Origin: Eledone cirrhosa
Taxonomy: Eukaryota
DNA length: 57,781 bases
Direction of reading: 5' to 3'
Assembly: GCA_964016885.1 (NCBI GenBank)
Contig: CAXHJY010000332.1
Location: 1-57,781 of the forward strand
Made by a program: the position numbers and the translations under genes. Positions 5,490 through 56,996 of this stretch are shown one piece after another. The notes beneath the pieces are model-generated. The model worked only from the letters and a program-made list of their open reading frames with translations. It was not told the DNA's origin and did not search any database. The number at the start of each line of letters is the position of its first letter. Within the stretch, counting starts at the first letter, position 1.

Positions 5490-5492
<3 letters not shown>
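2749..5492 (-). mobile_element. RTE LINE family B, 5'-truncated
   Basis: RT ORF, 3'UTR with a duplicated AGGAAGGGCATCCA-type module, (GAT)n tail. Both ends lie in TA tracts. Confidence 0.95.
3258..5492 (-). pseudogene. Truncated RTE ORF2 (RT + PHD-like finger; no APE)
   Basis: Motifs YRGIKL, QFGF, FVDLEKA(S)DRV, GVHQGSVLSPLLF, LYADD, RRLRWYGHVMR, GRPRKTW. The N-terminal YIYI of the predicted ORF is microsatellite. Confidence 0.92.
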
Positions 5493-5588
<96 letters not shown>

Positions 5589-5590
5589 CA

Positions 5591-8879
<3,289 letters not shown>

Positions 8880-8892
8880 GTATATATATATG

Positions 8893-9667
<775 letters not shown>

Positions 9668-22000: not shown

Positions 22001-22674
22001 AGGTGGAAGACTTACGTAGATTAGAGAGAAACGAAGCCTGCATGCTCCGATGGATGTGTAACAGTAATATACGTGAACGACAAAGCATAAATGAATTGAG
22101 AGAGAGACTGAGCATAAGAGGAATCAAATGCTGCGTGCAGGAGAGGCGGTTACGCTGGTATGGACATGTGATGCGTATGAAGGATGACAGCTGCATAAAA
22201 AGGTGCAGAGCACTAGAAGTTGATGGAAACCGCGGAGTGGGGAGACCCAAGATGACTTGGGATGAGGTGATAAAAGCCGACCTTACCCAACTACACCTCT
22301 CAAAGTCAATGACACACGACCGTGACTTCTGGCGTCACGCAGTAATACAGGGTACCCGACCTCCCATGGGTACATGCTGAAGCATATAAACAATATGCCC
22401 CCCCCCCCCACCGCAAGGTGGTCGTGGAGGTGCCACGGCAAAAAAGCACCCAGCCCACACTGTAAAGTGGACGTGTAGGCGCCACGAAAAAGCACCCAGC
22501 ACTCACTGTAAATGAGGTTGGTGTTAGGAAGGGCATCCAGCTGTAGAAATCAAGCCAGATCAGTTCCTGTATGAGCAAGGCATGGTCAGCCGACCAGACA
22601 CTGCCCACAACAGGACAACCCGTCTAACCCATGCTAGCGTGGAAGAACGGACGTAAAACGGTGATGATGATGAT
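19015..22674 (+). mobile_element. Apparently full-length RTE-clade LINE (family A)
   Basis: C-rich 5' leader, single APE-RT ORF, ~290-bp 3'UTR, (GAT)n tail into a TA tract. The 5' boundary is approximate. Confidence 0.93.
19261..22380 (+). CDS. RTE ORF2: AP endonuclease + reverse transcriptase + PHD-type zinc finger, 1039 aa, uninterrupted
   Basis: APE motifs GTINVGSM, CVQETRW, SAYAPQ, GDFNGHVG, LDFIL, SQH. RT motifs FVDLEKAFDRV, QGSVLSPLLF, LYADD. Finger CSVC..CPKC..HKRC..CSSC. RTE C-terminal RLRWYGHVMR and GRPKMTW. Confidence 0.95.
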   Translation: MNLRATKHPREAPTQRPSPTSVDKCPKLRVGTINVGSMKGRAGEIVEMLERKEVDVCCVQETRWRGGSARVLVGKSQCYKFFWVGNDDGMGGVGILLADKWVDKVISVYRVNARIIKLRLVLNKTITTIISAYAPQSGLPDELKDRFYESLIHTTALTDDKDFLIIAGDFNGHVGKHCDGFNRVHGGHGVGTRNEEGFRLLEFCDANDMSICNTNFKKPDNHLITYRSGEHSSQLDFILIRGRDRWTVVNTKAFPSEECTSQHSLVVSDLTVRTRRALKQRPTWRRKIWKLKVPSTSNRFKDILLNAYDSKEEQIETFNVEENWEFLKNNLLEATDEVCGWSKTSSRRRVTWWWNNKVDEAVKAKRQAWKEWKNGGSRVHYIETKREARRQVYLARREGEDRKFKHVLQREDQKQEVFKIARQCVRDSCDVIGEKCIRNDKGELALTSAEKKDAWKSHYDRLLNEENAWEEETLPHVDPIEGPAVQVSGSVVSKAIRDMKIGKATGPSGIAAEMLKASGSVGHTITTRIVNQVILEGAIPKDWCSSIIVNCYKGKGDALDRGNYRGIKLMDQVMKVTERVIAQLIRDRVNIDEMQFGFVPGKGTTDALFLVRQLQEKYLAKSKPLYLAFVDLEKAFDRVPRAVIWWALRKLGVDEWLVKAVQAMYRGAVSKVRIGNEYSEEFSVQVGVHQGSVLSPLLFIIVLQAITEEFKTGCPWELLYADDLALIAESMVELENKFQTWKQGLERKGLKVNMTKTKVLISRRENRTQIPSGKWPCSVCRKGVGRNSILCPKCKQWVHKRCSGISGSLIKNVGFTCSSCAETASKQPQETSTTNLWEGPVETVDSFCYLGDRISNGGGCSESTITRVRTGWKKFRELLPLLAAKGFSLRMKGRLYDACIRTAMLHGSETWALKVEDLRRLERNEACMLRWMCNSNIRERQSINELRERLSIRGIKCCVQERRLRWYGHVMRMKDDSCIKRCRALEVDGNRGVGRPKMTWDEVIKADLTQLHLSKSMTHDRDFWRHAVIQGTRPPMGTC

Positions 22675-24945: not shown

Positions 24946-27375
24946 CTTTGAATAACTTTGAAATGTTTTGGCCAGTATTGGCCCAGGCCATGTCTAACTT
25001 AATAGCACCACCTGGCGAAGTCTTTCAATTCAGGATTTGGGCACCATGGCCCATTCGAGAAGAGAATTACTGTTTGCGGAGACATATCCGGGTGTGGGTG
25101 GTTTGTCCGGGATTACTTGGAGGAATTTGTCCAAAGACTTCTTGAATGTTGTGTGGTCAGTTTCTGTTTTGACGTGTCCTGGTGTGATGTTGAAGAGAGC
25201 AGGGCCGATTGAGGTGAAATAATTGTGCCGTATTGTTGTTATGAGTTGCGATTTAGATTTTTGAATGGGACGGATAGCACGGGGCCCAAGCCTTGGGTGT
25301 ATCTTGAAGGCGATGCCAACATCATTTGGGCAGTGATGATGGAACATTTTCCACATCATGCAGATAATATAACGCTCACGGCGACGTTGGAGTGAGTAAA
25401 GTTTCAGGTTTTCTAATCGACCCCAGTAGTCAAGGTCTGACATGCCATCTATCTTTTTCGTGATTGCCCTTTGAGGAGCTTCAAGTTTCATAATACTTTG
25501 TTTCGTGTGGGGAGACCACAGTGGACAACAGTATTCAAGGTGTGGTCGGGCAAAAGTAGAGAAGAGAAGGATAATGGTGCGGGAATCTCTCGACTGGAAG
25601 GTTCTGAGGATCCAGGAACACATTCTGCGGGCCATGTCAACTTTGCTGCTTATATGCGTGGTCCAGCTTATGTTGCTGTCCACGGTTACTCCCAAGTCTC
25701 TGATGTTGTTAGATGCCACGAGAGTTTCCCCGGAGGGAAGGGAGTACGGGAGTTTCAGAGCATCCTCTTTTCCAAAGTGGATCAGTTCGAATTTGTCTTC
25801 GTTCAGTAACATGTTGTTCTTTTCTGCCCATTGGGTAACAGCCAGTAGGTCTGACTGAAGGCTTATCCGGTCATCCACGCCATTGATGACCTTTTGGAGC
25901 TTGGAATCATCAGCGAAAATTTTAATGTTGCTGTGTTTGATGATGTCAGTGATGTCATTAATATAGATGATGAAGAGAAGTGGGCCCAACACAGTGCCTT
26001 GTGGGACCCCACTACTGACTTTGGCTGGGCTTGATTTGACTCCCTCAACTACAACATGTTGGGTTCTGTTTGACAGGAAGCTCTTGATCCACTGCAGCAG
26101 CTTTCCAGTGACACCAATATTGGACAGCTTTCTCAGTAGAATGTTATGATCAACCCTGTCAAAGGCCTTGCTGAAATCAAGGTAGATAACATCAGTGTTG
26201 GAACCCTCTCCCAAGGCTCTCAAAATGTCATCAAAGTGATGCAGTAGCTGCGTCAGGCAATCCCTTCCATTACGGAATCCATGCTGGTTGGAGTTCAGCA
26301 TATTGTTACCCTCAAGGAAGTGGGTCATTCGCGATCTCACCACTCTCTCAAATACCTTAATGATATGAGAGGTGAGTGAGATTGGACGGTAATTCACGGC
26401 AAGGGATTTGTTTCCCTTTTTGAAAACTGGGACAACAGACTGGGATAGAAGGTTTTCTGGCACATATCCAGCATCCAGTGAGTTCCGCCACAGATTGGCA
26501 AGAGGAGATGCAAGTTGGTGTTGACACGCCTTCAAGACACAAGCAGGGAACCTATTGGGACCTACTGCTGAATTATGCTTGATTTCCTTTATTGCCGCCA
26601 AGACATCAGGGGCGCCAAACGTTATGTCCGATAAGGTGTAATGGGGAGTAACATCGCCGATACAGCCCAGATCGGCCATATCAGGATTGCTGAAAACAGA
26701 GCAGTATTGTTTCTGCAGTATCTCACCCATGGTTTTAGCATTGTCTTGAAGAGTGCCATTTTCATCAATTAGAGGGCCAACAGTAGAGCCAGTGATTTTG
26801 TGTTTTTTTGCAAATGAAAAGAACACTTTGGGATTGAGTTTGATCTTCTCAATGGCCCAGGCCTCTTCAGCTCTTCTCTGATTGTTGATGAGGGACATTA
26901 TGTTGTTTTGGAGGTTATGTTTTTTAATCTCTAGTGATGAAATGGCAGTCAAGTTGATGTGTTGCTGCTGACAGTATTTCAGCTTGTTGATTTTTTTGTT
27001 CGTTCTCTTAATTTTTCTGATGAGCGTTTTTCTATTTCTAGGGATTCTGCTCTTAGATTTGTTTTTAGTTCTTAATGGGGTGTGTTTAGCACATATGTTT
27101 GTAACAGTGTCCACAAATGTCTGCCAGGACTTTTTGATGTTAGTGGGTGTATGAGTGTGCGTGAAGGACCAGTCGACATGTGCAAGATCATGACTGATCG
27201 CTTCCCAGTTTGCATTGTGGAAATCCATAGCGTCAAACGGATGGACAGGAGAGATGACATTGGGTTTGTATATTGGACGGTGGAATCTCAGATCACAGAG
27301 AACCATGTCATGATCAGAGAGTAGAGTTTTCTCCACTGCAATATTGTGGATATTGTCAGTGTGATTGCTGAAAAT
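24943..27375 (-). mobile_element. CR1-group LINE, 5'-truncated
   Basis: RT ORF, short 3'UTR ending in a tandem TCAAAGTTAT repeat next to a TA tract. Near-identical to 34318-36977. Confidence 0.9.
25030..27336 (-). CDS. CR1-group ORF2 remnant (end of APE + RT), 768 aa open frame
   Basis: [60 protein letters not shown]. Confidence 0.88.
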
Positions 27376-27390
27376 ATATATATATATATA

Positions 27391-27425
<35 letters not shown>

Positions 27426-27436
27426 GTATGTATTTG

Positions 27437-27475
<39 letters not shown>

Positions 27476-27521
27476 ATGTGTGTATGTATGTATGCATGTG
27501 TGTATATATATATATATATAT

Positions 27522-29361
27522 ATCAGAGAGAGAATTGATCTAGATGAAATGCAGTTCGGTTTTTCATTGTACGACAACTACAACAGAAGTACCTAGCTAA
27601 AAGTAAACCCCTATACTTAGCTTTTGTTGACATGGAGAAAGCCTTCGACAGAGTCCCCAGTTCCATTATCTGGTGGGCTCTTAGAAAACTAGGTGTTGAC
27701 GAATGGCTTGTGAGAGCTATACAAGCCATGTATAAAGAAACAGTCAGCAAGGTTAGAATTAACAACGAATATAGTGAAGAGTTTAGTGTAAAAGTTGGTG
27801 TACATCAGGGCTCTGTTCTTAGCCCCCTACTATTTATTATTGCTCTTCAGGCCATAACAGTGGAGTTCAAGACCGGCTGCCCATGGGAACTCCTATACGC
27901 AGATGATCTAACGCTCATAGCTGAATCAATGGCCGAGCTAGAGAAGAAATTCCAAACATGGAAGCACGGCCTAGAATCAAAAGGCCTTAAAATTAACCTG
28001 GCTAAGACTAAAGTTTTAGTTTGTCGGAAAGAAAATAAGGCTCCGGTCCCTTCCGGGAAATGGCCATGCTCAGTGTGTAGGAAAGGCGTAGGTAGAAACT
28101 CCATTTTATGTCCCAAATGCAAAGTATGGGTGCATAAAAGACGTAGTGGGATCACAGGTAAGCTAACTAAGAACATAGATTTTACATGTGGCCGGTGCTC
28201 TGGTGCAATAAGTAACAGCAAGTGCCCACAAAATACTAGCTCTTTCAATTGCGCAGAGGGTTCTATAGAAATAGTGGACAGCTTCCGTTACCTGAGTGAC
28301 AAAATCATCAGTGGGGGAGGGTGCTCTGAAAGTACAGTAGCTAGAGTCAGAACTGGATGGAAAAAGTTCAGAGAGCTTATACCACTATTAGCCACTAAAG
28401 GGTTCTTCCTAAAAATGAAAGGCAGGTTGTATGATGCCTGCATACGAACAGCAATGTTGCATGGCAGTGAGACCTGGGCATTGTGTGCAGAGGATATACG
28501 CAGACTAGAGAGGAATGAAGCTTGCATACTCCGCTGGATGTGCAATAGTAACATACGTGAATGGCAAAGCATAAGCGAACTAAGGAAAAAATTAGAAATA
28601 AGAGGGATCAGATGTTGTTTACTCGAGAGAAGGTTACGTTGGTATGGTCACGTGATGCGCATGAAAGACGACAGCTGTATAACAAAGTGCAGGGCAATAA
28701 AGATAGACGGTAGCTACGGAGTAGGCAGACCCAGAAAAACCTGGGACGAGCTGATAAATTCCGACCTCACACTCTTACACCTCTCCAAGACAATGTCACT
28801 GGACCGAGACCTTTGGCGGTACTCTGTAATAGAGAAGACCCGCCTTACCTAAATACAAAGTAAAACCTACTACAGTCAGTAGGCATCTCTAACAAAATAC
28901 ACCCCATCCCACCACCCCCACCCCATCCACACCGCCCCTTTCAATGTAAAGTTATGTTGGTGCCACAACATCCAGGCCAAAACAAATGAGATCGTGTAGG
29001 TGTCACGACAAAAAAAACACACAGTCCACGCTGTAATGTGGCCGTGTAGGCAACACAGTAAAAACCTCCCAGCCCCACACTGTAAATTTGGTTGGTGTTA
29101 GGAAGGGTATCCAGCTGTAGAAAACCCGCCAGACAGTCCATGCTGTAATGTGGCCGTGTAGGCAACACGGTAAAAACCTCCCAGCCCCACACTGTAAATG
29201 CGGTTGGTGTTAGGAAGGGCATCCAGCTGTAGAAAACCCGCCAGACAGTCCTATGCGAGCAAGACAATCACTCTTGCCTCAAGTGGGAAAACCCCCGTCC
29301 AAACCCATGCAAGCGTGGAACACGGACGTTAAACGATGATGATGATGATAATGATGATGAT
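27522..29361 (+). mobile_element. RTE family B, 5'-truncated (ORF remnant 27632-28852)
   Basis: Close match to 3258-4620 with a short deletion near 27560. Duplicated 3'UTR module and (GAT)n tail. Confidence 0.93.
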
Positions 29362-34318: not shown

Positions 34319-36977
34319 TTGCCTCAACAGCATAAAGTGTTTCATCCAAGAGTGTCACCCTGACAACATCTTAATGATGGGGGACTTCAACCTCCCCGGA
34401 GTTGACTGGTCCACAAACACCCTGCCACCAGGTTCTTCTGCCTCAACCTCTGACAGGGAAGCTGTGGAATCGCTTCTTGACTTCATGGATGATTTCTTCC
34501 TATCCCAACTAGTGCTTGAACCAACGAGGTACCACAAAAACGTCCTAGACTTAATTTTCAGCAATCACACTGACAATATCCACAATATTGCAGTGGAGAA
34601 AACTCTACTCTCTGATCATGACATGGTTCTCTGTGATCTGAGATTCCACCGTCCAATATACAAACCCAATGTCATCTCTCCTGTCCATCCGTTTGACGCT
34701 ATGGATTTCCACAATGCAAACTGGGAAGCGATCAGTCATGATCTTGCACATGTCGACTGGTCCTTCACGCACACTCATACACCCACTAACATCAAAAAGT
34801 CCTGGCAGACATTTGTGGACACTGTTACAAACATATGTGCTAAACACACCCCATTAAGAACTATAAACAAATCTAAGAGCAGAATCCCTAGAAATAGAAA
34901 AACGCTCATCAGAAAAATTAAGAGAACGAACAAAAAAATCAACAAGCTGAAATACTGTCAGCAGCAACACATCAACTTGACTGCCATTTCATCACTAGAG
35001 ATTAAAAACATAACCTCCAAAACAACATAATGTCCCTCATCAACAATCAGAGAAGAGCTGAAGAGGCCTGGGCCATTGAGAAGATCAAACTCAATCCCAA
35101 AGTGTTCTTTTCATTTGCAAAAAAACACAAAATCACTGGCTCTACTGTTGGCCCTCTAATTGATGAAAATGGCACTCTTCAAGACAATGCTAAAACCATG
35201 GGTGAGATACTGCAGAAACAATACTGCTCTGTTTTCAGCAATCCTGATATGGCCGATCTGGGCTGTATCGGCGATGTTACTCCCCATTACACCTTATCGG
35301 ACATAACGTTTGGCGCCCCTGATGTCTTGGCGGCAATAAAGGAAATCAAGCATAATTCAGCAGTAGGTCCCGATAGGTTCCCTGCATGTGTCTTGAAGGC
35401 GTATCAACACCAACTTGCTTCTCCTCTTGCCAATCTGTGGCGGAACTCACTGGATGCTGGATATGTGCCAGAAAACCTTCTATCCCAGTCTGTTGTCCCA
35501 GTTTTCAAAAAGGGAAACAAATCCCTTGCCGTGAATTACCGTCCAATCTCACTCACCTCTCATATCATTAAGGTATTTGAGCGAGTGGTGAGATCGCGAA
35601 TGACCCACTTCCTTGAGAGTAACAATATGCTGAACTCCAACCAGCATGGATTCCGTAATGGAAGGGATTGCCTGACGCAACTACTGCATCACTTTGATGA
35701 CATTTTGAGAGCCTTGGGAGAGTGTTCCAACACTGATGTTATCTACCTTGATTTCAGCAAGGCCTTTGACAGGGTTGATCATAACATTCTACTGAGAAAG
35801 CTGTCCAATATTGGTGTCACTGGAAAGCTGCTGCAGTGGATCAAGAGCTTCCTGTCAAACAGAACCCAACATGTTGTAGTTGAGGGAGTCAAATCAAGCC
35901 CAGCCAAAGTCAGTAGTGGAGTCCCACAAGGCACTGTGTTGGGCCCACTTCTCTTCATCATCTATATTAATGACATCACTGACATCATCAAACACAGCAA
36001 CATTAAAATTTTCGCTGATGATTCCAAGCTCCAAAAGGTCATCAATGGCGTGGATGACCGGATAAGCCTTCAGTCAGACCTACTGGCTGTTACCCAATGG
36101 GCAGAAAAGAACAACATGTTACTGAACGAAGACAAATTCGAACTGATCCACTTTGGAAAAGAGGATGCTCTGAAACTCCCGTACTCCCTTCCCTCCGGGG
36201 AAACTCTCGTGGCATCTAACAACATCAGAGACTTGGGAGTAACCGTGGACAGCAACATAAGCTGGACCACGCATATAAGCAGCAAAGTTGACATGGCCCG
36301 CAGAATGTGTTCCTGGATCCTCAGAACCTTCCAGTCGAGAGATTCCCGCACCATTATCCTTCTCTTCTCTACTTTCGCCCGACCACACCTTGAATACTGT
36401 TGTCCACTGTGGTCTCCCCACACGAAACAAAGTATCATGAAACTTGAAGCTCCTCAAAGGGCAATCACGAAAAAGATAGATGGCATGTCAGACATTGACT
36501 ACTGGGGTCGATTGGAAAACCTGAAACTTTACTCACTCCAACGTCGCCGTGAGCGTTATATTATCTGCATGATGTGGAAAATGTTCCATCATCACTGCCC
36601 AAATGATGTTGGCATCGCCTTCAAGATACACCCAAGGCTTGGGCCCCGTGCTATCCGTCCCATTCAAAAATCTAAATCGCAACTCATAACAACAATATGG
36701 CACAATTATTTCACCTCAATCGGCCCTGCTCTCTTCAACATCACACCAGGACACGTCAAAACAGAAACTGACCACACAAAATTCAAGAAGTCTTTGGACA
36801 AATTCCTCCAAGTAATCCCGGACAAACCACCCACACCCGGATATGTCTCCGCAAACAGTAATTCTCTTCTCGAATGGGCCATGGTGCCCAAATCCTGAAT
36901 TGAAAGACTTCGCCAGGTGGTGCTATTAAGTTAGACATGGCCTGGGCCAATACTGGCCAAAACATTTCAAAGTTATT
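34318..36977 (+). mobile_element. CR1-group LINE, 5'-truncated, with a frameshift near 35005
   Basis: APE remnant (GDFNLP, LDLIF, SDH) and RT ORF 35030-36898. The A-run at ~35004 is one base shorter than in the 25030-27336 copy. Confidence 0.9.
35030..36898 (+). pseudogene. CR1-group RT, downstream part of the frameshifted ORF2
   Basis: Near-identical to the 25030-27336 protein. Confidence 0.88.
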
Positions 36978-42163: not shown

Positions 42164-42322
42164 ATATTGTTATACTTTGGGAGGGTCATGTTGCCAATAA
42201 GAAACACACGCACCAGTTGCTTTCACTTCAATTTAATTTAATATATATTTATAAATTTACAAATTTATAAATTTCTGGTTGGTTGGTTGGTTCCACAACC
42301 AGATAGTTGTTTATATATATAT

Positions 42323-42367
42323 AGTCATAGTTCTTTCGTCACACACTCTGTGACCTCTTCAGTGACT
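42323..42367 (-). ncRNA. Minimal type I hammerhead of PLE family 1
   Basis: Reverse complement of 48536-48580. Confidence 0.85.
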
Positions 42368-42661
42368 GGGGATTTCTTTCGTTTCTGTGCCTTTCCTTTC
42401 TTCTATCCTACGCCATTTTGTTTGTGTGTGGGTTGCGTGCTCAGTTTGCGCATGCGCCACATCCGGGTGTCTGTGTGTGTTTGTGTTCATTTTTCTATTT
42501 TTCTATTTATATTTGTTTGTTTATTTATTTATTTATTGTTGGTTGGTTGTTTGTTCTATGTGTGTGTGTGTTTTCATTTTGTCTTGTGTGTGTTTTCATT
42601 TTGTGTGTGTTTTCAATTGTAAGTTGTTTGTTCTATGTGTGTGTGTGTTTTCATTTTGTCC

Positions 42662-44965
42662 TTAATTGTAAGTTGTGATGTTGCTGTTCCACTCATATTT
42701 TCTATTTAATTTTGGTTTTAATTCTTTTATGCTTACTGCCTCTGTAATTTGCCTAAACATTGCGTCTTTCTTGTGTGTGGATTCTATTTTTATTTCTATG
42801 CTCTCTAATTTACCCCTGTGTTCTATCTTAGCATGTTGGTAGAGCACAGATGATTCTTTACTATCTTGGAGGTCTCGCCAGTGTTCATTTATTCGTTCCC
42901 CTATACTACGAGCTGTCTCACCTATGTACACTATATTTTTGTTTCTACATTGTCCTTCAGTACATCTTATGCTATATACTACATTTCTAGTTTTACAGTT
43001 AATATGGGGGCTTATTTTACAGGTTATACATTTCTTATCTATACATGAGGGTCTTTGGAACGGGTATGTCTTGCTAATAATACCAGGTCTTTCTACTATC
43101 TTAATATTGAGATTATGTTTCTTTAGGGCCCTTCTAAATTTGTAGGCTAGTTCGCCTCTAGGGGTTGTATTGATGAACATTACACTCTGGTATTTATTGC
43201 TATCATACCATGAGTTTATTCTATTGGCCTTGTTCTTAGTTCTTTCTATTCTATTCCAAAATTTGCTCCTATACAAGGGGCAGGTCCCATTTATGTCATT
43301 ATTTACCATTTTTTCCCATTTGGTTCTGGCTCCTTTATACACTCTGATTCTATCTCTCTGATTGTAGCCAGAGAACTGCATACGGTGGATGAAGTGTTGT
43401 ATGTGTCTCTCTAGTTCTTCGGGGTTGCACATGCGGAACACATTTCTCATCACCCGTATCAAATCCGCAATCAGTATGTTGATTTTGGTATGGTCCGAAA
43501 TGGCCGAGTTTCGGTGGATCAGATGTTTGGAAGTCATGGGTTTGGCATAATGGGAATGGAGGATTTGTTTTTGGTTGTTAATAGTATCTAACCAGAGCTC
43601 TGTGTCTAGTACAGGTAATCGATGGTTGGGGTGTTTACTTGGGTAGTCTATAGTAACTCTAATGCTCTGGTGGATGGAGTTTGCTATTTGCTGGATGCTT
43701 TCCATTGTGTTTTTCTCTGGTTCCTGACTGTTCTTTAGTGGGGGTGTCTTAACTACGATGTTTATATCATCTACGTAGCGGGAGTACATTATCAGGGTTA
43801 ATCTGTCTTCTAATTGTTCTTTAAGTTTTTGTTTAAGTCTACTGTCCCACCATACCATGAACAAGTTAGCTATGTCGCCTGCAATGCTAACACCAATGGC
43901 TGCTCCTTCCTCTTGGGCATATGTTTTACCATTAAATTTGAACATATGTTCCTTAAGGGTTAATTTTATGCTGGCCCCTACCGCATGTGCAATCATTTTC
44001 TTCAGTTCATCGTGGTTTTCGGGTGTCCGTATGGCTCTGGTCCACCCGTTCCATCTATCTGTGTGGGTTTTCTTGGCCATTGAGGTAATGGTAGGTGGTC
44101 TGCCTCTTGCTGGTCTTGTAGGGCACAGGTTGCTAAGGTCATAAGTGTCTAGGTAACTATTACTATGGGTAAGCTTAAGTAGAAGTCCCAGCTCACTGGT
44201 ATCAATCCCACGGAACTCAACCTTGCTCTCGCTGATCATTTCGACGCATTTCTCCACAGCAAAATCCACGTCAATAGATGGATACAGGGACACAACATCC
44301 ATACTGCCTATTATGCAGTTTGTTAGGTCCCCAGATCGGTTACCCGCGCCGATTCTGCTGAGGAGGTCCTCCGTGCTGTCACATACATCTGGGGACATCT
44401 CAATGATGGGGCGTATGATCAGGGAGAGGAAGTAGGACAGTCTGTAGTTACTAGCAATGTTAGCCCCACAGACTGGCCGTGTTGGTGGTCCCGCGACAGG
44501 GTCCCAGCCCGTTTTATGGTCTTTTCGAAGCCCATACAACGCCGGCACGTCATTGTTCCAGGCCTGGAAGTTGTTGGCAGTCCTTTTGTTGGGCTGCATT
44601 ATATTTGTCCACATCACCATATGGGCATTGAGGGTTTTTTCTCTATCCTCATGCTCCTGTGGTGTTACCTCTCTTGTGTTAGTGATGTGGGGTTGCATTG
44701 CCTGGATGTAGTTTGGCAGGCTGTCAACCGACATTCTGCCAGACTTGTCTGTTGGAAAGCATGCTATCTCTCCATTACGCGAGCGCTGCATGAGCTTACG
44801 CAAGCCATTTGCAGATTCTTCTCCCAGTTGCTGGGCCTCTATTCTATTATGCTTCTTGCTATACTGTTCTATAATATTTCTAAGTTCGGATTTAGCTATA
44901 CTAAATTGTGCTTCTGTTTGTTCATCGACCTGCGACGGCAACTGCGTGCGTTTGTTAAATGGCAA
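42662..44965 (-). CDS. Penelope-like RT + GIY-YIG, 767 aa open frame (inverted copy)
   Basis: Same motifs as 45548-48241. TSVKTL is replaced by I. Confidence 0.88.
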   Translation of the reverse strand: MPFNKRTQLPSQVDEQTEAQFSIAKSELRNIIEQYSKKHNRIEAQQLGEESANGLRKLMQRSRNGEIACFPTDKSGRMSVDSLPNYIQAMQPHITNTREVTPQEHEDREKTLNAHMVMWTNIMQPNKRTANNFQAWNNDVPALYGLRKDHKTGWDPVAGPPTRPVCGANIASNYRLSYFLSLIIRPIIEMSPDVCDSTEDLLSRIGAGNRSGDLTNCIIGSMDVVSLYPSIDVDFAVEKCVEMISESKVEFRGIDTSELGLLLKLTHSNSYLDTYDLSNLCPTRPARGRPPTITSMAKKTHTDRWNGWTRAIRTPENHDELKKMIAHAVGASIKLTLKEHMFKFNGKTYAQEEGAAIGVSIAGDIANLFMVWWDSRLKQKLKEQLEDRLTLIMYSRYVDDINIVVKTPPLKNSQEPEKNTMESIQQIANSIHQSIRVTIDYPSKHPNHRLPVLDTELWLDTINNQKQILHSHYAKPMTSKHLIHRNSAISDHTKINILIADLIRVMRNVFRMCNPEELERHIQHFIHRMQFSGYNQRDRIRVYKGARTKWEKMVNNDINGTCPLYRSKFWNRIERTKNKANRINSWYDSNKYQSVMFINTTPRGELAYKFRRALKKHNLNIKIVERPGIISKTYPFQRPSCIDKKCITCKISPHINCKTRNVVYSIRCTEGQCRNKNIVYIGETARSIGERINEHWRDLQDSKESSVLYQHAKIEHRGKLESIEIKIESTHKKDAMFRQITEAVSIKELKPKLNRKYEWNSNITTYN

Positions 44966-45547
44966 TGTATCTGGGTATGTTGCTATTGTTTTTGTTATTG
45001 TTGTTTGTGTCTGTGTGTCTGTTGTTGTTGGGATGTGTGTTGTATATGTGTGTGCGTATATTGTTGCTTTTGTTTTTGTTTTTGATGCTCCAGCGTAGTT
45101 TCGTAAATGATTTTTCTATTTCTGACAGGAAATAGAAAAATCATTTACGAAACTAGAAAAATCATTTACGAAACTACGCTGGAGCATCAAAAACAAAAAC
45201 AAAAGCAACAATATACGCACACACATATACAACACACATCCCAACAACAACAGACACACAGACACAAACAACAATAACAACAACAATAGCAACATACCCA
45301 GATACAACACCAACAATAGCAACATACCCAGATACAACAGACACGCAGACACAAACAACAATAACAACACACACGGAGACAACAATAACAACAACACACA
45401 CATCAACAACAACAACAGCAACATACCCAGATACAACAACAACAGACACGCAAACACAAACAACAATAACAACACACACACACACACGGAGACAACAACA
45501 CACATCAACAACAACACACATCAACAACAACAACACACACACATTCA

Positions 45548-48241
45548 ATGCCTCTCACCACCACTACAATCTTAACAAACACACAGACACAGAAAACAAG
45601 TAATGACAGTAGCACAGAAATCAGAGAAATAAGAGAAAGTAATAGGATTAAAAGGAGTAGGGAGACTAAGGACAAAGAGAATAACCAAGACGAACACACA
45701 GACACACAAAATAGGGTAGATAACATTGAGCCAGTGGAAAGAGACAGGAGTAATTATGAGAGACATAGAAACAACCATGAAGCTGAGGCTGCTGCTGTTG
45801 GTGGAAATAGAAACAACACAACTAACAATAGCACTAGTACACATAAAGCAGCAGCCTGGAACTCTCCGTTTTATAACCCCTCCGATAAATCATTCGACCT
45901 ACGACGAGTCCACGCCACGACATTGCCATTTAACAAACGCACGCAGTTGCCGTCGCAGGTCGATGAACAAACAGAAGCACAATTTAGTATAGCTAAATCC
46001 GAACTTAGAAATATTATAGAACAGTATAGCAAGAAGCATAATAGAATAGAGGCCCAGCAACTGGGAGAAGAATCTGCAAATGGCTTGCGTAAGCTCATGC
46101 AGCGCTCGCGTAATGGAGAGATAGCATGCTTTCCAACAGACAAGTCTGGCAGAATGTCGGTTGACAGCCTGCCAAACTACATCCAGGCAATGCAACCCCA
46201 CATCACTAACACAAGAGAGGTAACACCACAGGAGCATGAGGATAGAGAAAAAACCCTCAATGCCCATATGGTGATGTGGACAAATATAATGCAGCCCAAC
46301 AAAAGGACTGCCAACAACTTCCAGGCCTGGAACAATGACGTGCCGGCGTTGTATGGGCTTCGAAAAGACCATAAAACGGGCTGGGACCCTGTCGCGGGAC
46401 CACCAACACGGCCAGTCTGTGGGGCTAACATTGCTAGTAACTACAGACTGTCCTACTTCCTCTCCCTGATCATACGCCCCATCATTGAGATGTCCCCAGA
46501 TGTATGTGACAGCACGGAGGACCTCCTCAGCAGAATCGGCGCGGGTAACCGATCTGGGGACCTAACAAACTGCATAATAGGCAGTATGGATGTTGTGTCC
46601 CTGTATCCATCTATTGACGTGGATTTTGCTGTGGAGAAATGCGTCGAAATGATCAGCGAGAGCAAGGTTGAGTTCCGTGGGATTGATACCAGTGAGCTGG
46701 GACTTCTACTTAAGCTTACCCATAGTAATAGTTACCTAGACACTTATGACCTTAGCAACCTGTGCCCTACAAGACCAGCAAGAGGCAGACCACCTACCAT
46801 TACCTCAATGGCCAAGAAAACCCACACAGATAGATGGAACGGGTGGACCAGAGCCATACGGACACCCGAAAACCACGATGAACTGAAGAAAATGATTGCA
46901 CATGCGGTAGGGGCCAGCATAAAATTAACCCTTAAGGAACATATGTTCAAATTTAATGGTAAAACATATGCCCAAGAGGAAGGAGCAGCCATTGGTGTTA
47001 GCATTGCAGGCGACATAGCTAACTTGTTCATGGTATGGTGGGACAGTAGACTTAAACAAAAACTTAAAGAACAATTAGAAGACAGCTTAACCCTGATAAT
47101 GTACTCCCGCTACGTAGATGATATAAACATCGTAGTTAAGACACCCCCACTAAAGAACAGTCAGGAACCAGAGAAAAACACAATGGAAAGCATCCAGCAA
47201 ATAGCAAACTCCATCCACCAGAGCATTAGAGTTACTATAGACTACCCAAGTAGACACCCCAACCATCGATTACCTGTACTAGACACAGAGCTCTGGTTAG
47301 ATACTATTAACAACCAAAAACAAATCCTCCATTCCCATTATGCCAAACCCATGACTTCCAAACATCTGATCCACCGAAACTCGGCCATTTCGGACCATAC
47401 CAAAATCAACATACTGATTGCGGATTTGATACGGGTGATGAGAAATGTGTCCCGCATGTGCAACCCCGAAGAACTAGAGAGACACATACAACACTTCATC
47501 CACCGTATGCAGTTCTCTGGCTACAATCAGAGAGATAGAATCAGAGTGTATAAAGGAGCCAGAACCAAATGGGAAAAAATGGTAAATAATGACATAAATG
47601 GGACCTGCCCCTTGTATAGGAGCAAATTTTGGAATAGAATAGAAAGAACTAAGAACAAGGCCAATAGAATAAACTCATGGTATGATAGCAATAAATACCA
47701 GAGTGTAATGTTCATCAATACAACCCCTAGAGGCGAACTAGCCTACAAATTTAGAAGGGCCCTAAAGAAACATAATCTCAATATTAAGATAGTAGAAAGA
47801 CCTGGTACCTCCGTAAAAACACTTATTAGCAAGACATACCCGTTCCAAAGACCCTCATGTATAGATAAGAAATGTATAACCTGTAAAATAAGCCCCCATA
47901 TTAACTGTAAAACTAGAAATGTAGTATATAGCATAAGATGTACTGAAGGACAATGTAGAAACAAAAATATAGTGTACATAGGTGAGACAGCTCGTAGTAT
48001 AGGGGAACGAATAAATGAACACTGGCGAGACCTCCAAGATAGTAAAGAATCATCTGTGCTCTACCAACATGCTAAGATAGAACACAGGGGTAAATTAGAG
48101 AGCATAGAAATAAAAATAGAATCCACACACAAGAAAGACGCAATGTTTAGGCAAATTACAGAGGCAGTAAGCATAAAAGAATTAAAACCAAAATTAAATA
48201 GAAAATATGAGTGGAACAGCAACATCACAACTTACAATTAA
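45548..48241 (+). CDS. Penelope-like reverse transcriptase + GIY-YIG endonuclease, 897 aa
   Basis: PTDKSG, LYGLRKDHK, TRPV, SMDVVSLYPSI, QEEGAAIG, RYVDDI, LPVLD, YAKP. Linker C-x4-C-x2-C. NVVYSIRC...[16 protein letters not shown]. The true start is probably upstream. Confidence 0.92.
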   Translation: MPLTTTTILTNTQTQKTSNDSSTEIREIRESNRIKRSRETKDKENNQDEHTDTQNRVDNIEPVERDRSNYERHRNNHEAEAAAVGGNRNNTTNNSTSTHKAAAWNSPFYNPSDKSFDLRRVHATTLPFNKRTQLPSQVDEQTEAQFSIAKSELRNIIEQYSKKHNRIEAQQLGEESANGLRKLMQRSRNGEIACFPTDKSGRMSVDSLPNYIQAMQPHITNTREVTPQEHEDREKTLNAHMVMWTNIMQPNKRTANNFQAWNNDVPALYGLRKDHKTGWDPVAGPPTRPVCGANIASNYRLSYFLSLIIRPIIEMSPDVCDSTEDLLSRIGAGNRSGDLTNCIIGSMDVVSLYPSIDVDFAVEKCVEMISESKVEFRGIDTSELGLLLKLTHSNSYLDTYDLSNLCPTRPARGRPPTITSMAKKTHTDRWNGWTRAIRTPENHDELKKMIAHAVGASIKLTLKEHMFKFNGKTYAQEEGAAIGVSIAGDIANLFMVWWDSRLKQKLKEQLEDSLTLIMYSRYVDDINIVVKTPPLKNSQEPEKNTMESIQQIANSIHQSIRVTIDYPSRHPNHRLPVLDTELWLDTINNQKQILHSHYAKPMTSKHLIHRNSAISDHTKINILIADLIRVMRNVSRMCNPEELERHIQHFIHRMQFSGYNQRDRIRVYKGARTKWEKMVNNDINGTCPLYRSKFWNRIERTKNKANRINSWYDSNKYQSVMFINTTPRGELAYKFRRALKKHNLNIKIVERPGTSVKTLISKTYPFQRPSCIDKKCITCKISPHINCKTRNVVYSIRCTEGQCRNKNIVYIGETARSIGERINEHWRDLQDSKESSVLYQHAKIEHRGKLESIEIKIESTHKKDAMFRQITEAVSIKELKPKLNRKYEWNSNITTYN

Positions 48242-48436
48242 GGACAAAATGAAAACACACACACACATAGAACAAACAACTTACAATTGAAAACACACAC
48301 AAAATGAAAACACACACAAGACAAAATGAAAACACACACACACATAGAACAAACAACCAACCAACAATAAATAAATAAATAAACAAACAAATATAAATAG
48401 AAAAATAGAAAAATGAACACAAACACACACAGACAC

Positions 48437-48492
48437 CCGGATGTGGCGCATGCGCAAACTGAGCACGCAACCCACACACAAACAAAATGGCG
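48437..48492 (+). promoter_or_regulatory. Putative pLTR promoter motifs: ETS-like CCGGATGT, NRF1-like GCGCATGCGC, YY1-like CAAAATGGCG
   Basis: Consensus matches at 48437-48444, 48446-48455 and 48483-48492. The latter two are echoed at 38115-38124 and 38199-38207. Confidence 0.4.
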
Positions 48493-48535
48493 TAGGATAG
48501 AAGAAAGGAAAGGCACAGAAACGAAAGAAATCCCC

Positions 48536-48580
48536 AGTCACTGAAGAGGTCACAGAGTGTGTGACGAAAGAACTATGACT
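48536..48580 (+). ncRNA. Minimal type I hammerhead of PLE family 1
   Basis: AGTCA-CTGAAGA-G-GTCAC-AGAGTGT-GTGAC-GAAA-GAAC-TA-TGACT. Confidence 0.85.
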
Positions 48581-48795
48581 ATATATATATAAACAACTAT
48601 CTGGTTGTGGAACCAACCAACCAACCAGAAATTTATAAATTTGTAAATTTATAAATATATATTAAATTAAATTGAAGTGAAAGCAACTGGTGCGTGTGTT
48701 TCTTATTGGCAACATGACCCTCCCAAAGTATAACAATATCGGTTTCAACACACGATTTCAGATAAAGAATCTTGCTAAACAAATTCAGAAACGAC

Positions 48796-50632
<1,837 letters not shown>

Positions 50633-50831
50633 GTAGATAAATCTACCAAAAGTTTACGGTAGTGTCCAATCCGTATGAAGAACTCAATGTAATCCGGATA
50701 TCATGAAAAGAAGAGATGCCTTCAAAAATCACTTTCGGTGAAAGATAAACGGAATACAGAGTCAAGATAAAATATTTAAAAAATAATGAATAAAACAAAG
50801 AAACAGTTCCTTATATTAAACAAAAAAAGTT

Positions 50832-50970
50832 CATTATATTACGATCGTTTCTAGGACATATATGTGTTAGAATTGGTATGCATATTCAAAAGATCTATGT
50901 ACAAAATTATACAAACTATCAAGGAGAATATACATACCATCACATATATATGCTGTCTTCAGAAATGATG
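50832..50970 (-). ncRNA. Type I hammerhead with ~104-nt stem II
   Basis: Reverse complement: CATCATTT-CTGAAGA-[hairpin including TGGTATGTATATTC/GAATATGCATACCA]-GAAA-CGATCG-TA-ATATAATG. Confidence 0.65.
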
Positions 50971-51793
50971 ATGTATATTTATTGATAATAACAACAATTC
51001 AAAATTACAGGTCTGTTTGGGAACAGATTTTAAATAGACCAATGAAATACATAAAAATTCATCAAGAAAATACAGTTAGGTGTGTGTATATATGTAAGTA
51101 AATTTGCTCACAGATATGCATAAAAATGTATGTTCACATGCATACGCATGTTGAAAAAGTGTATGTAAATATAAAATATAAAAATTTAGGGCTAATGTAT
51201 CTGTATGTTTACAATCTACAGACAAAATATACATATATATACATATATATATATACATATATATATACACACATATACACACACACGTACACATACATAA
51301 ACACACACATACATACGAACACACATATACAAACACACATACGTATATATTATTATTATAACTATATGGATATTGAGGCGCTCACATAAACACGCCCACA
51401 CGCACTTACATTTAGATGCAGAAGTAAAGGAGGCAAGGGAGTAAGTAATTAAAGGAAAGTGTCAAACTCGACATATTTATAAAAATGTATCTATAAAGTT
51501 AGAAATAAAAAAAAAATTTTATAGAAGGAAAAAACTTAAAAACGGGGGAACAAAAAATAAGGGGGAGGGTTGTTACGTACATACACAGACGCGAATGTCT
51601 CACAAAAGAAATATAAAAAAACATAAAAAACATAAAAGAGAGACATAAAATATACATGCTTATATACATACGCACATTTACACATCCATACGTACGCACA
51701 CACACATACACATACTTAACCTCACACATATTAACCTGTTTGTATGCATATACATAAAAATAAGTAAAACAAATACCCATACATATAAATACA

Positions 51794-51845
<52 letters not shown>

Positions 51846-52046
51846 TACACACAACACACATATATACATATATATACACATACATATATATATATATATA
51901 CATATACACACAACATACATATATACATATATATACACATACATATATATACATATACATATATATACATATACATACATATATATATATATACACACAT
52001 ATATATATATATATATATATACATATACATACATATATATATATAT

Positions 52047-52103
<57 letters not shown>

Positions 52104-53219
52104 GTCAGTCATATGCACATATATACACATACATACACACATCTCTACAAATACATATACATACACATACATACATACACATATATATACATATACATAT
52201 ATATATATATATATATATACACTCATACACACATATTTACATGTGCACATATGTATTTTTATACTCACATACAAACACACAAACATACATACACACATAC
52301 ATACACATACATACATCCACGCTTACAAATACGAATAATTAATGGGGGGGAAAGGGGGATTAAAATTATTAGTGGGAAATAGTAAATATATAGGTTTCAA
52401 GGAACATAGAATATTAATCTGCAGTTAAATCATAATATGTGTTAACATAGTTGTGTCAGTATTAGGAAATGGTATTTGTAAGAAAGAAGGCTAAATTATG
52501 TATTTTAATATAAGTAGACTATTAATTATAGGTTAATTAAAGTAAAAATAGTTAATATATTAATTTCTAAGGTGTATACTACTTAGGTTTATAATATTTA
52601 AAGCGGAATTTTGAAGTTAAACAGTAGTAGAGTATTAATTATAGCATAACTAAATTTAAAATAATTACATATATTAACATGATGGTATCAATTTTAGGAA
52701 ATGAAATTTGTAATAGGGAAAGCCAAATTAAGTATTTCATCGGTAGTAGAATATTAATTATAGGTTAACTAAATTAAAAATTATATATTAATTTCTATAG
52801 TATATGTTAATTAGGTTTATAATAATTAAAGCAAAATTTTGTATTTTATCTATAGTAGAATATAATAATAGGTTAACTAAATTAAAATCAATCTATATAT
52901 TTATTTGTAAAGAGTATATTAATTAGGTATATATTTAAAAGTTTTTCTCAGTTTATGATTACACGATATTCTGCAATCCATCTGTATTAGAATTTTAATT
53001 ATAAGCTAACTAAATTAAAATTATAGGTTAACTAAATCAAAATTAATTTATAAATTAATTTCTAAATTGTATATTAATTAGGTTTATAATATTAAAAAGT
53101 ATTTCTCCATTATTAATTACACGATATTTTGTTGTATTTCATCTGTAAAGGCACTCGACAAATTTTTGGAGTAGATATACGATATTAATAAATGGAAACT
53201 ATATTTATAAAACCATATT

Positions 53220-53283
53220 TATTTCATTATACATATTTCAGGGATACCACATTAAATTATGGTATGCCTTCATCAGACAAATA
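53220..53283 (-). ncRNA. Type I hammerhead
   Basis: Reverse complement of 53345-53409, with one T fewer in stem I. Confidence 0.7.
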
Positions 53284-53344
53284 CAATATATAACAGTTTT
53301 ACAAATAGGTACGTCAAACCTATTTGTAAAACTGTTATATATTG

Positions 53345-53409
53345 TATTTTGTCTGATGAAGGCATACCATAATTTAATGTGGTATCCCTGAAATATGTAT
53401 AATGAAATA
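53345..53409 (+). ncRNA. Type I hammerhead
   Basis: TATTTTGT-CTGATGA-AGG-C-ATACCAT-AATTTAAT-GTGGTAT-C-CCT-GAAA-TATGTA-TA-ATGAAATA. Confidence 0.75.
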
Positions 53410-53585
53410 AATATGGTTTTATAAATATAGTTTCCATTTATTAATATCGTATATATATATATATATATATATAGAAAGATTTGAATGGATACAGTTTAGT
53501 TGAAAGGAATTTATTGACACGTGTTTTTATAACAGTTACATAACCTGAAAACGGCTGCTATCTACAAAGTTTTAGTTATGCAGAC

Positions 53586-53629
53586 ATTCAATATTTCAAT
53601 GTTATTATTTACTGTCATTTCATCAGAAT
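53586..53629 (-). ncRNA. Degenerate hammerhead (G at the cleavage position)
   Basis: Reverse complement: ATT-CTGATGA-AATG-...-CATT-GAAA-TAT-TG-AAT. Confidence 0.45.
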
Positions 53630-54661
53630 AATATTACTGAGGACCTATTTGGTTTTTATAGAGAATATTAGGAGGGAGGGGTGAAGTTGTTAGAAGAATA
53701 GTTGAGGGAGTGGTTTTTTGATAGCAGTGAGAATTTTTGGTGGCAGTGAGTAATTAGATTCCCATCTGTTGTTTTGACATTTTTATAGAATATATTATTG
53801 GTTATTTTTCTAAATTTATAGAAGGATTAGAGATAGTAAAGATATGCGTGGTTGGTTTTGTGTTTGCACTTAATTAACATTCAGACTTAAATTTTTCTTT
53901 CAAGTGTACGTATCCTTTCACCCACGTATTCACACACAAATATATTTGCACACCTCTACAAAATACATATACTCAGATTCACATATTCATACTTACATAG
54001 CTATACACATGCATACATATATATATATACACACATGTATTCATGTACATACATACGCGCTCATGTGTATACATTTTCATACTCAACTTATCTTTATATA
54101 CACACGTATAGACACACACATATATACATACATACTCTAGTCTATGTGTACACATATACACATACATACACATCTATATATATATACATATATACACATA
54201 TATATATATATATAAGCACTTTAATACATGAATACACTTACATCTAACTATACACATCAAACATATATATATATATTTACTTATTTATATACATTTTCAC
54301 ATATATATACATATTTATGGACGTTTTTAGACACATTCATTATCGCATATTTGCACCTATTCTCATCAGCATATCTTTCTATTATTAGTATATATATATA
54401 GGAGGAAGTTATAGTTCACTTGAAGCATTGTGTAATGTGGTATAAACGTTTGTATTTGTAAAGGTTAAATAAACTAAAATTAATCTATATATTAATTTCC
54501 AAAGTATATATTAATTATGTTAATAATATTTAAATGTTTTTCACAGTTTATGATTATACGATATTTTTTAATTTCATCTGTAGTAGAATTTTAATTAAAT
54601 TAAAATTATAGGTTAACTACATTAAAATTAATTTATATATTAATTTCTAAAATATATATTA

Positions 54662-55048
54662 TTAATTAGGTTTATAATATTTAAATGTTTTTCTCAGTTT
54701 ATGATTACACGATATAATTAATTCCTGTCGCTTATTTAATAGGATATCCTTAGATTTCATTATTTCAAATAGTTCTTGGGAACACAATCTACATTCATTT
54801 CTATTATTTTGATAAGGGGTGGCTCTTTTGAGTACACTCCAGGTCATATCATATTCTATATTCTTATTTCTATAACTATTAATTTTTTCTGCTAGAGATG
54901 TTGTATTAGCCAGTGCGGCATTTTTAAAACTATGTTTGTGGGTATTAAACCTTACCTTAAAATTGTTAGAAGTAGCTCCTATATATGAGCAAATAGAATC
55001 TTTAGTTTTAACTTTACATTTATAAACTTCTGCTTCATTTCTACAATT
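54662..55048 (-). pseudogene. GIY-YIG endonuclease domain of a Naiad-like PLE (extends upstream of the listed 61-aa ORF)
   Basis: Hand translation: NCRNEAEVYKCKVKTKDSICSYIGATSNNFKVRFNTHKHSFKN...TSLAEKI...TWSVLKRATPY...CRLCSQE...LLNKRQELIISCNH. Confidence 0.85.
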
Positions 55049-55085
55049 TGATATAGATAATTACTATTCTTCTATATCACCTATA

Positions 55086-55560
55086 CCTAAATTGATACCA
55101 TCATGTTAATATATGTAATTATTTTTAATTTAGTTATGCTATAATTAATACTCTACTACTGTTTAACTTCAAAATTCCGCTTTAAATATTATAAACCTAA
55201 GTAGTATACACCTTAGAAATTAATATATTAACTATTTTTACTTTAATTAACCTATAATTAATAGTCTACTTATATTAAAATACATAATTTAGCCTTCTTT
55301 CTTACAAATACCATTTCCTAATACTGACACAACTATGTTAACACATATTATGATTTAACTGCAGATTAATATTCTATGTTCCTTGAAACCTATATATGTA
55401 ATATTTCCCACTAATAATTTTAATCCCCCTTTCCCCCCCATTAATTATTCGTATTTGTAAGCGTGGATATATGTATGTGTATGTAAGTGTGTATGTATGT
55501 TTGTGTGTTTGTATGTGAGTATAAAAATACATATGTGCACATGTAAATATGTGTGTATGA

Positions 55561-55610
<50 letters not shown>

Positions 55611-55913
55611 GTGTATGTATGTATGTGTATGTATATGTATTTGTAGAGATGTGTGTATGTATGTGTATATATGTGCATATGTGTCTGACTGTGTGTATTT
55701 ATATATATATATATATGTGTGTATGTATGTCTCTATATATATGTATGTCTGAGTGTGTGTGTGTGTGTGTGGTTGTGTATATATACATGGGTATGTGTGT
55801 ATGTATGTATATATATATATATATGTGTGTATGTATATGTGTGTATATATATATATGTATGTATATGTATATATATGTGTATGTGTATATATATGTATAT
55901 ATGTGTGTTGTGT

Positions 55914-55945
<32 letters not shown>

Positions 55946-56996
55946 CGGTGTGTATTTATATGTATGGGTATTTGTTTTACTTATTTTTATGTAAATGCAT
56001 ACAAACAGGTTAATATGTGTGAGGTTAAGTATGTGTATGTGTGTGTGTGTACGTATGTATGTATCGAACGTATGGATGTGTAAATGTGCGTATGTATATA
56101 AGCATGTATATTTTATGTCTCTCTTTTATGTTTTTTTATGTTTTTTTATATTTCTTTTGTGAGACATTCGCGTCTGTGTATGTACGTAACAACACCCCCC
56201 CCCTTATTTTTTGTTCCCCCGTTTTTAAGTTTTTCCTTCTATAAAAATTTTTTGTTATTTCTAACTTTATCGATACGTTTTTATAAATATGTCGAGTTTG
56301 ACACTTTCCTTTAATTACTTACTCCCTTACCTCCTTTACTTCTGCATCTAAATGTAAGTGTGTGTGGGCGTGTTTATGTGAGCGCCTCAATATCCATATA
56401 GTTATAATAATAATATATACGTATGTGTGTGTGTGTGTTTGTATATGTGTGTTCGTATGTATGTGTACGTGTGTGTGTATGCATGTGTGTATATGTGTGT
56501 ATATATATATGTATATATATATATGTATATATATGTATATTTTGTCTGTAGATTGTAAACATACAGATACATTAGCCCTAAATTTTTATATTTTATATTT
56601 ACATACACTTTTTCAACATGCGTATTCATGTGAACATACATTTTTATGCATATCTGTGAGCGAATTTACTTACATATATACACACACCTAACTGTATTTT
56701 CTTGATGAATTTTTATGTATTTCATTGGTCTATTTAAAATCTGTTCCCAAACAGACCTGTAATTTTGAATTGTTGTTATTATCAATAAATATACATCATT
56801 ATTTCTGAAGACAGCATATATATGTGATGGTATGTATATTCTCCTTGATAGTTTGTATAATTTTGTACATAGATCTTTTGAATATGTATAACAATTCTAA
56901 CACATATGTCCTAGAAACGATCGTAAAATAATGAACTTTTTTTGTTTAATATAAGGAACTGTTTCTTTGTTTTATTCATTATTTTTTTATTTTAAA
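55086..56996 (+). mobile_element. Inverted duplicate of the PLE family 3 3'UTR
   Basis: Reverse complement of ~50770-52697, moderately diverged. It starts about 35 bp beyond the point where the GIY-YIG frame is truncated. Confidence 0.88.
56797..56933 (+). ncRNA. Type I hammerhead with 102-nt stem II
   Basis: CATTATTT-CTGAAGA-(56812-56913)-GAAA-CGATCG-TA-AAATAATG. Perfect 8-bp stem I and palindromic stem III. Confidence 0.75.

Follow-up and report, generated by a model that had tools for sequence, protein, structure and literature searches.

The right end of the stretch analysed (hereafter the window, the whole 57,781 nt of an Eledone cirrhosa contig) holds a single inverted insertion at 50630-56995, with its long end to the left and its short end to the right. 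The right arm of this inverted pair (55089..56995, plus strand) is a 5'-truncated Penelope-like retroelement (PLE) copy, consisting of 3' UTR and pseudo-LTR (pLTR) sequence with (TA)n closing its short side; the element's short 3' end lies at about 56995. The left arm, on the minus strand, carries a fragment from this PLE family's C-terminal GIY-YIG (54662..55060; PF01541, E 0.007) and a pLTR reaching the long 3' end, with a tail of about 140 nt (50630..53130, the inner boundary being approximate). At 52317-53130 and 54430-54660, the 3' UTR opens with several degenerate tandem copies of the element's own endonuclease (EN) coding end. Within the right-arm pLTR, the motif at 56797 is confirmed, by its anatomy and predicted fold, as a type I hammerhead, predicted to be self-cleaving.

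The 5' strand of stem I in this focal copy occupies 56796..56804 on the plus strand, within which the hot spot for SINE-like insertions of other copies falls, and is followed by the 5' half of the core, CUGAAGA (C3-A9, 56805..56811), both read from the motif itself. Stem II, placed by folding and by comparison of pairs, spans 102 nt (56812..56913) and is weakened in this copy. The next segment (56914..56925) contains G12-A13-A14 (56914-56916), stem III as an 8-nt palindrome (56917-56924) and H17 (A56925), after which cleavage is predicted, in agreement with the original prediction. The 3' strand of stem I (56926..56934, by anatomy and folding) forms nine pairs rather than the eight first proposed, and a second complement of this strand, the anti-stem-I (56975..56984), lies just inside the short 3' end and closes a predicted 3' hairpin. 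From base to tip, stem II consists of a C·A at the first position, two pairs, a C·C mismatch, a basal helix, an asymmetric loop, a 14-bp helix, a 3-bp helix and an apical 6-bp helix. The CUGANGA and GAAA core, the A15.1-U16.1 pair and an H17 other than G are those of a type I hammerhead, as are the three helices with an open stem I and the covariation between lineages in stems I and II. The R10.1-Y11.1 pair that closes stem II in a hammerhead is replaced by C·A in subfamilies A-E and H. An AATAAA at 56784-56789, about 10 nt 5' of stem I, also occurs in A-E and G and may be due to chance in this AT-rich DNA.

The motif had been proposed in three copies (9057, 50832 and 56797). All three were found; the first two lie on the minus strand and carry lesions, which fall outside stem II. 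The copy at 50831..50971 has a stem II of 104 nt and two mismatches in stem I, and that at 9056..9206 has a stem II of 116 nt with a 10-nt apical duplication and a stem I shortened to 7 pairs by an inversion junction. The palindromic stem III stands in the focal copy and is broken by one substitution in the 9057 copy. The arm quoted as GAATATGCATACCA occurs only in the 50832 copy, and the focal copy differs from it by two substitutions and has, in addition, a 2-nt deletion in the basal arm. These three lesions account for the weak stem II of the focal copy, which alone folds no better than shuffles (z -1.4), against z of -2.9 to -8.8 in 10 other A-E/H copies, both other window copies included. 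An inverted partner at 9218..9494 (plus strand) contains the 3' half of a hammerhead, the fourth copy in the window (9218-9299), and the tail. A relaxed descriptor matched the window 6 times, whereas none of 20 local shuffles gave any match. Because the three window copies are copies of one element, they are non-independent evidence, and the argument is carried by comparisons between lineages.

Other repeats share the window. A second, unrelated PLE with RT and GIY-YIG (42164-48739) forms a near-perfect inverted pair with an open frame of 923 codons at 45470-48241, and it yielded no hammerhead to the relaxed descriptor. ORFs for LINE-type RT, one of them 1,040 codons long and several lying in inverted pairs, and a satellite of ~99-nt units occupy 19258-22380, 3258-5606, 25030-27522, 35006-36898 and 11317-19000. 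Type I hammerheads with palindromic stem III and a stem II of 53 nt and 36 nt lie at 11054 and 24423 (both plus strand), each running into (TA)n some 70-90 nt downstream. A further family of type I hammerheads, with a 30-nt stem II and C·C at pair 4, is present as a fold-back pair nested in the focal element, at 53345-53410 (plus strand) with its mirror at about 53276 (minus strand).

The host element encodes a single ORF of about 817 aa combining RT with a GIY-YIG at the C terminus, as in PLEs, and full ORFs (789-866 codons) have the hammerhead motif both upstream and downstream. A Zn-finger linker, CxC..CPLxxxC, lies between RT and the endonuclease, as in the Neptune clade, a trait that is common to Nematis. 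The ORF protein matched 108 homologues; Pfam gave no match for the full-length protein, and the EN fragment alone gave the PF01541 match noted above. The hammerhead 5' 20-mer has 6,278 exact matches in the genome. A DNA search of the same genome returned 40 scored matches of 97-100% identity (the best 40 of 1,040 candidates), many of them inverted pairs a few kb apart, and the GIY-YIG fragment had 150 scored matching places, 13 of which were picked for long open frames and read. Those 13 loci contain the ORF, a long 3' region, the hammerhead and the tail, and in many of them the pLTR recurs upstream of the ORF; at L051, the ATG lies about 375 nt downstream of the predicted cut. The pLTR, the partial-tandem and inverted insertions, the tail at one end and the microsatellite targets are likewise those of a PLE. 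Among 130 copies, 63 meet a microsatellite 50-89 nt past the predicted cut and 49 at 180-219 nt, with 7 ending elsewhere and 11 having no microsatellite within 340 nt. Two 3' ends can be told apart, one roughly 65 and the other roughly 200 nt beyond the predicted cut, a pattern that the PLE tail shares. A metagenome scan found no related locus. DNA-type contigs aligned to L051 gave no information on expression, and low-depth pieces from three other organisms were set aside.

Copies of the element sort into six subfamilies, A, B, C, D, H and E. The imperfect hairpin of about 100 nt that had been proposed between the core halves is real and conserved; stem II measures 99-116 nt across the six, with proteins down to 59-76% identical. 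Subfamilies E and A have RT 72-76% and EN 59-66% identical. Between them, the 3' core and stem I are identical at 20 of 21 positions, against 52-60% in the flanks and 61-62% in stem II; the binomial chance of such identity is, roughly, 3e-4 at p = 0.6. As E was found through its 5' half, identity on that side is forced; the 3' half was required of each copy at extraction and was not forced at the family level. H17, a position not fixed by extraction, is never G in 193 copies. Mutation of core nucleotides at the background rate had been named, together with a lack of cleavage, as what would count against a ribozyme; between lineages, the core is kept above its flanks, while single copies mutate neutrally after insertion.

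An older group, G, was found with a pattern allowing a stem II of 39-130 nt (426 matches), and 31 regions were taken from the G-like rows among the 100 matches listed. Stem III is shared and the flanks are homologous, but the arm differs in sequence from the A-E arm; stem II peaks at 102 nt (11/30), most others being shorter. Of 33 G loci, 11 have PLE ORF remnants nearby, 4 of them in the expected geometry, which makes the link of G to a PLE ORF a partial one. Trees of ORF fragments did not date the long arm (4/20 EN branches supported; the RT tree was a quick one only).

Pairing is retained together with length. Among 17 copies of A-E, 4 of the 7 basal stem II pairs have substitutions in both partners and pairing is seen in 96% of cells, with a covariation score above 500/500 shuffles; since the rows are related, this covariation represents a few lineage events, and by the count of covarying pairs the alignment did not exceed shuffles (165/500). 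For 15 copies of G, a hand structure drawn from one member (L283) had 79% of cells paired versus 29-46% when the structure was slid (4/500 shuffles). In G, too, the count of covarying pairs did not exceed that of shuffles (158/500), and RNAalifold on G alone gave only -2.4 kcal/mol, with most of the arm not recovered. In stem I, the A-U that A-E/H have at pair 4 gives way to G-C in 22 of 28 G copies, and pair 5 is U-A, U·G or C-G among lineages; stem III is invariant and therefore gives no covariation signal. Because both length and pairing are conserved, the arm is likely a working part, more than filler.

It might be argued instead that a working hammerhead had its stem II lengthened neutrally, by duplication or fold-back, with selection acting only on the folding of the insert aside. 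Stem II lengths in the genome run from 13 to 116 nt, as such a history would predict, and the ~100-nt arm is the far end of a length continuum. Sister hammerheads with the same stem III have a 20-nt stem II (125 matches, with ORF remnants 49-58% identical), and further hammerheads have a stem II of 26-53, 62, 82 and 96 nt. The 10-nt apical duplication in B/D and the distal arm sequence of G, unlike that of A-E, would also suit neutral growth. However, even as the sequence turns over, A, C, E, H and G keep to a stem II length of around 102-105 nt (102-104 nt in 22/22 E copies), and A and E share an apical motif. Deletion derivatives do occur, each of them once: of the 100 rows listed in the search that gave the 125 sister matches, five are internal deletions of the long arm, and, as each is different, they seem not to have been amplified. 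Taken as a whole, neutral extension appears to us rather unlikely. Single hammerhead-like motifs of other families with different palindromes and stem II hairpins of 96, 82 and 62 nt were also noted (L155:667, L226:4101 and L218:7078, respectively), and long arms may have arisen more than once.

Two positions of stem II depart from regular pairing. At 10.1-11.1, C·A is present in 31/31 A, 36/36 B/D, 47/47 C, 10/12 H and 18/21 E copies, and G has A-U or G·U there in 23/28. C·A in place of G-C may impair catalysis; it can also be read as one extra nucleotide per side, which is permitted by the descriptor in the available part of PMC4209133. At pair 4, C·C is found in 30/31 A, 36/36 B/D, 45/47 C, 12/12 H and 19/21 E copies, counts to be read with the family rules in mind, which fixed the 5' letters of the positions beside pair 4 and, in E, also the last two 3' letters. 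The C·C mismatch recurs in other hammerhead families of the genome: in 52 motifs with the AT-type palindrome, pair 4 is paired in 2, and positions 1-3 and 5-7 are paired in 43-52. A C·Y mismatch at pair 4 points to a candidate tertiary or protein contact, of which the literature searched describes none. An A-to-I editing signature was sought among variants shared by 126 copies and rejected (13 A/G versus 10 C/T columns).

The first-position C·A could also mean that the motif is catalytically dead and has been selected for its structure, as a promoter, RT or protein element acting in RNA or DNA without cutting. An alternative helix that joins the core halves, with a predicted probability of up to 0.99 in some copies, would be in line with this, and so would the genomic 5' ends, which show no clear excess at the predicted cut among 33 hand-read loci (the cut, where microhomology is present, accounts for 7, the stem II arm for 10 and a further microhomology site for about 5). 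In addition, cleavage is dispensable in vitro for another PLE, whose insertion was unaffected by hammerhead mutants in the portion of that study available (PMC11167929). Yet the nucleotides kept are exactly the catalytic ones, H17 and the palindrome; sister families likewise tolerate mismatches at the first stem II position, and active natural ribozymes carry U·U there, according to PMC3088659. We consider a dead catalyst improbable.

Genome-wide, 66 candidate matches lack the two upstream core letters, many of them inversions or point variants; among the 30 that were read are several stem I fold-backs and point or length variants, as well as 3 with a direct junction to (TA)n. Fold-back insertions with their junction in stem I were seen at L298, L300, L307, L308, L317, L319 and L323, and stem I fold-backs are consistent with template switching between the two complementary stem I strands. 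Stem I also receives insertions. An element of about 180 nt, which we take to be a SINE, joins it 7 nt upstream of C3 at 534 exact junctions, mostly in subfamily C and sometimes stacked (e.g., L005:2345-2525, L052, L035 and L064-L093). The 30 junction loci read include stacked insertions and have differing 5' truncations and duplication lengths, which indicates independent events; ARAGORN found no tRNA in three loci holding the insert. Of 93 SINE ends unselected for the junction, 3 map to the element, all at the stem I site, and one more is a nested SINE. About 64,000 SINE ends in the genome begin with the same five target letters. The SINE control gave 1 match; it is imperfect, and unfair to subfamily C because the downstream sequence of that subfamily differs. 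The enrichment at the stem I site is real but moderate. The inversion junction of the 9057 copy coincides with this site.

The pre-miRNA-like role first suggested for the arm, in which Drosha or Dicer would cut it into a defined small RNA, is highly improbable, for although intact A-D/H arms have an 11-17 bp helix with an energy index of -1.0 to -1.5 (overstated owing to low GC), a regular stem of conserved sequence is not kept across lineages, as E and G have other arm sequences, helices of 5-9 bp, large asymmetric internal loops and an index of -0.5 to -0.7, and Rfam miRNA matches on an intact copy reach 18.7 against a gathering threshold of 75 bits.

We therefore return to the reading that we hold to be the probable one, with some reserve: the ~100-nt stem II is a hairpin whose length and pairing are conserved, a putative protein handle on a hammerhead for which cleavage likely requires both dimer formation and the assistance of protein. 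Folding predictions bear on the dimer. The second partner of the stem I 3' strand lies about 50 nt downstream. When 75 nt of downstream RNA are included in the fold, stem I drops, in those A-E/H copies able to form it, from a predicted probability of 0.7-0.95 to one of 0-0.5; of two G copies, one is predicted to show the same drop. Folding predicts the 3' hairpin in 137 of 147 A-E/H copies (31/31 A, 35/36 B/D, 42/47 C, 12/12 H and 17/21 E) and in 13/28 of G. The stem I 3' strand is predicted to pair preferentially within the anti-stem-I hairpin, which would leave the monomer off. The palindrome is predicted to form a duplex of -10.0 kcal/mol and no hairpin in the monomer. The model predicts a ribozyme that is off by default and whose palindromic stem III needs a dimer. 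In the available parts of earlier reports, PLE hammerheads have weak activity and act as dimers (PMC4209133), and a PLE hammerhead is protein-assisted in vitro (PMC11167929).

From PLE biology and these predicted folds, the following course may be proposed. Transcription would run through tandem pLTRs, and once about 75 nt of downstream RNA had been made, the anti-stem-I hairpin would take the stem I 3' strand and keep the monomer off. Two palindromes could then pair to give a dimer, and the ORF protein would bind and refold the region, after which cleavage would trim the transcript. The basal three pairs and the C·C mismatch might replace loop 2, and the distal arm might serve as a protein-binding scaffold; these last two are the weakest steps of the proposal. 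RT binding by the long arm is plausible, and a more general role in protein binding or positioning may be envisaged.

Hammerheads in pLTRs with palindromic helix III are already known, and the ~100-nt stem II is the apparently new part. The PLE min-hammerheads and palindromic-helix-III variants of PMC4209133, in the part of that paper available, are also of type I, lie in pLTRs, have a palindromic helix III, are predicted to act as dimers and share optional extra nucleotides beside stem II. Their stem II region is about 10-25 nt in the rows examined, whereas that of the E. cirrhosa element is 99-116 nt, with C·A replacing G10.1-C11.1, a stem I of 9 bp and C·C at pair 4. In PMC11167929, the hammerhead of PAc (Poseidon, Anolis) also lies in the pLTR, is inactive alone and shares two downstream RT start sites that define a tail; however, its ORF begins within stem II, whereas the ATG here lies far past the cut, the protein here has a Zn-finger linker, and the tail is 30-40 bp in Penelope as against ~140 nt here. 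Neptune- and Nematis-type C-terminal EN+ PLEs, as described in the accessible text of PMC8557442, have the same RT, CxC..C linker and GIY-YIG with a C-terminal C/H motif, as well as (TA)n targets and inverted and partial-tandem insertions, a likeness by features and not by tree.

Widely separated core halves have been described elsewhere. The discontinuous Clec2 hammerheads have them, but the search in the consulted part of PMC2950038 allowed insertions in loops 1 or 3 and not in stem II, and the host is an mRNA without a pLTR. They are also far apart in ASBVd, a dimeric type I motif in which, in the excerpt of PMC6155905 available, helices I and II are not clearly delimited; ASBVd is a viroid, unlike the retroelement pLTR here. 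The claim that length-limited searches would overlook such a motif holds, as it is missed both by the PLE descriptor in the available part of PMC4209133 (stem II 3-7 bp, loop 3-10 nt) and by Rfam, in which no hammerhead appeared among the best 150 of 539 rows or in two further searches. The Rfam miss says little, because the short-stem sister at L204 was missed as well. The core search of PMC8557442 used spacers of 7-17 nt, with Naiads half-cores at 35-50 nt and none near 100 nt in the portion available. Within the literature searched, whose coverage is incomplete and does not establish priority, no PLE hammerhead with such a stem II was found.

The role of the hammerhead in PLEs is described as an open question in both PMC8557442 and PMC11167929. 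It could be tested in the E. cirrhosa family, which provides full-length copies that are young, a graded series of subfamilies showing compensatory changes, naturally occurring deletions that shorten the arm, and sister families whose arms measure 20-50 nt. Length-capped searches undercount hammerheads: by the descriptor, 16 of 72 other-family motifs in the examined loci have a stem II of at least 46 nt, at least 2 of these looking mis-parsed. More tentatively, and as a possibility that we would not yet favour, this may be a PLE lineage in which a length-conserved, RT-binding 100-nt stem II controls cleavage by way of a switch in which stem I alternates with the 3' hairpin at the RT start, with a three-pair and C·Y motif replacing loop 2 across a class of long-armed hammerheads that descriptors miss. 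If that were true, PLEs reported to be without a hammerhead may in part have one.
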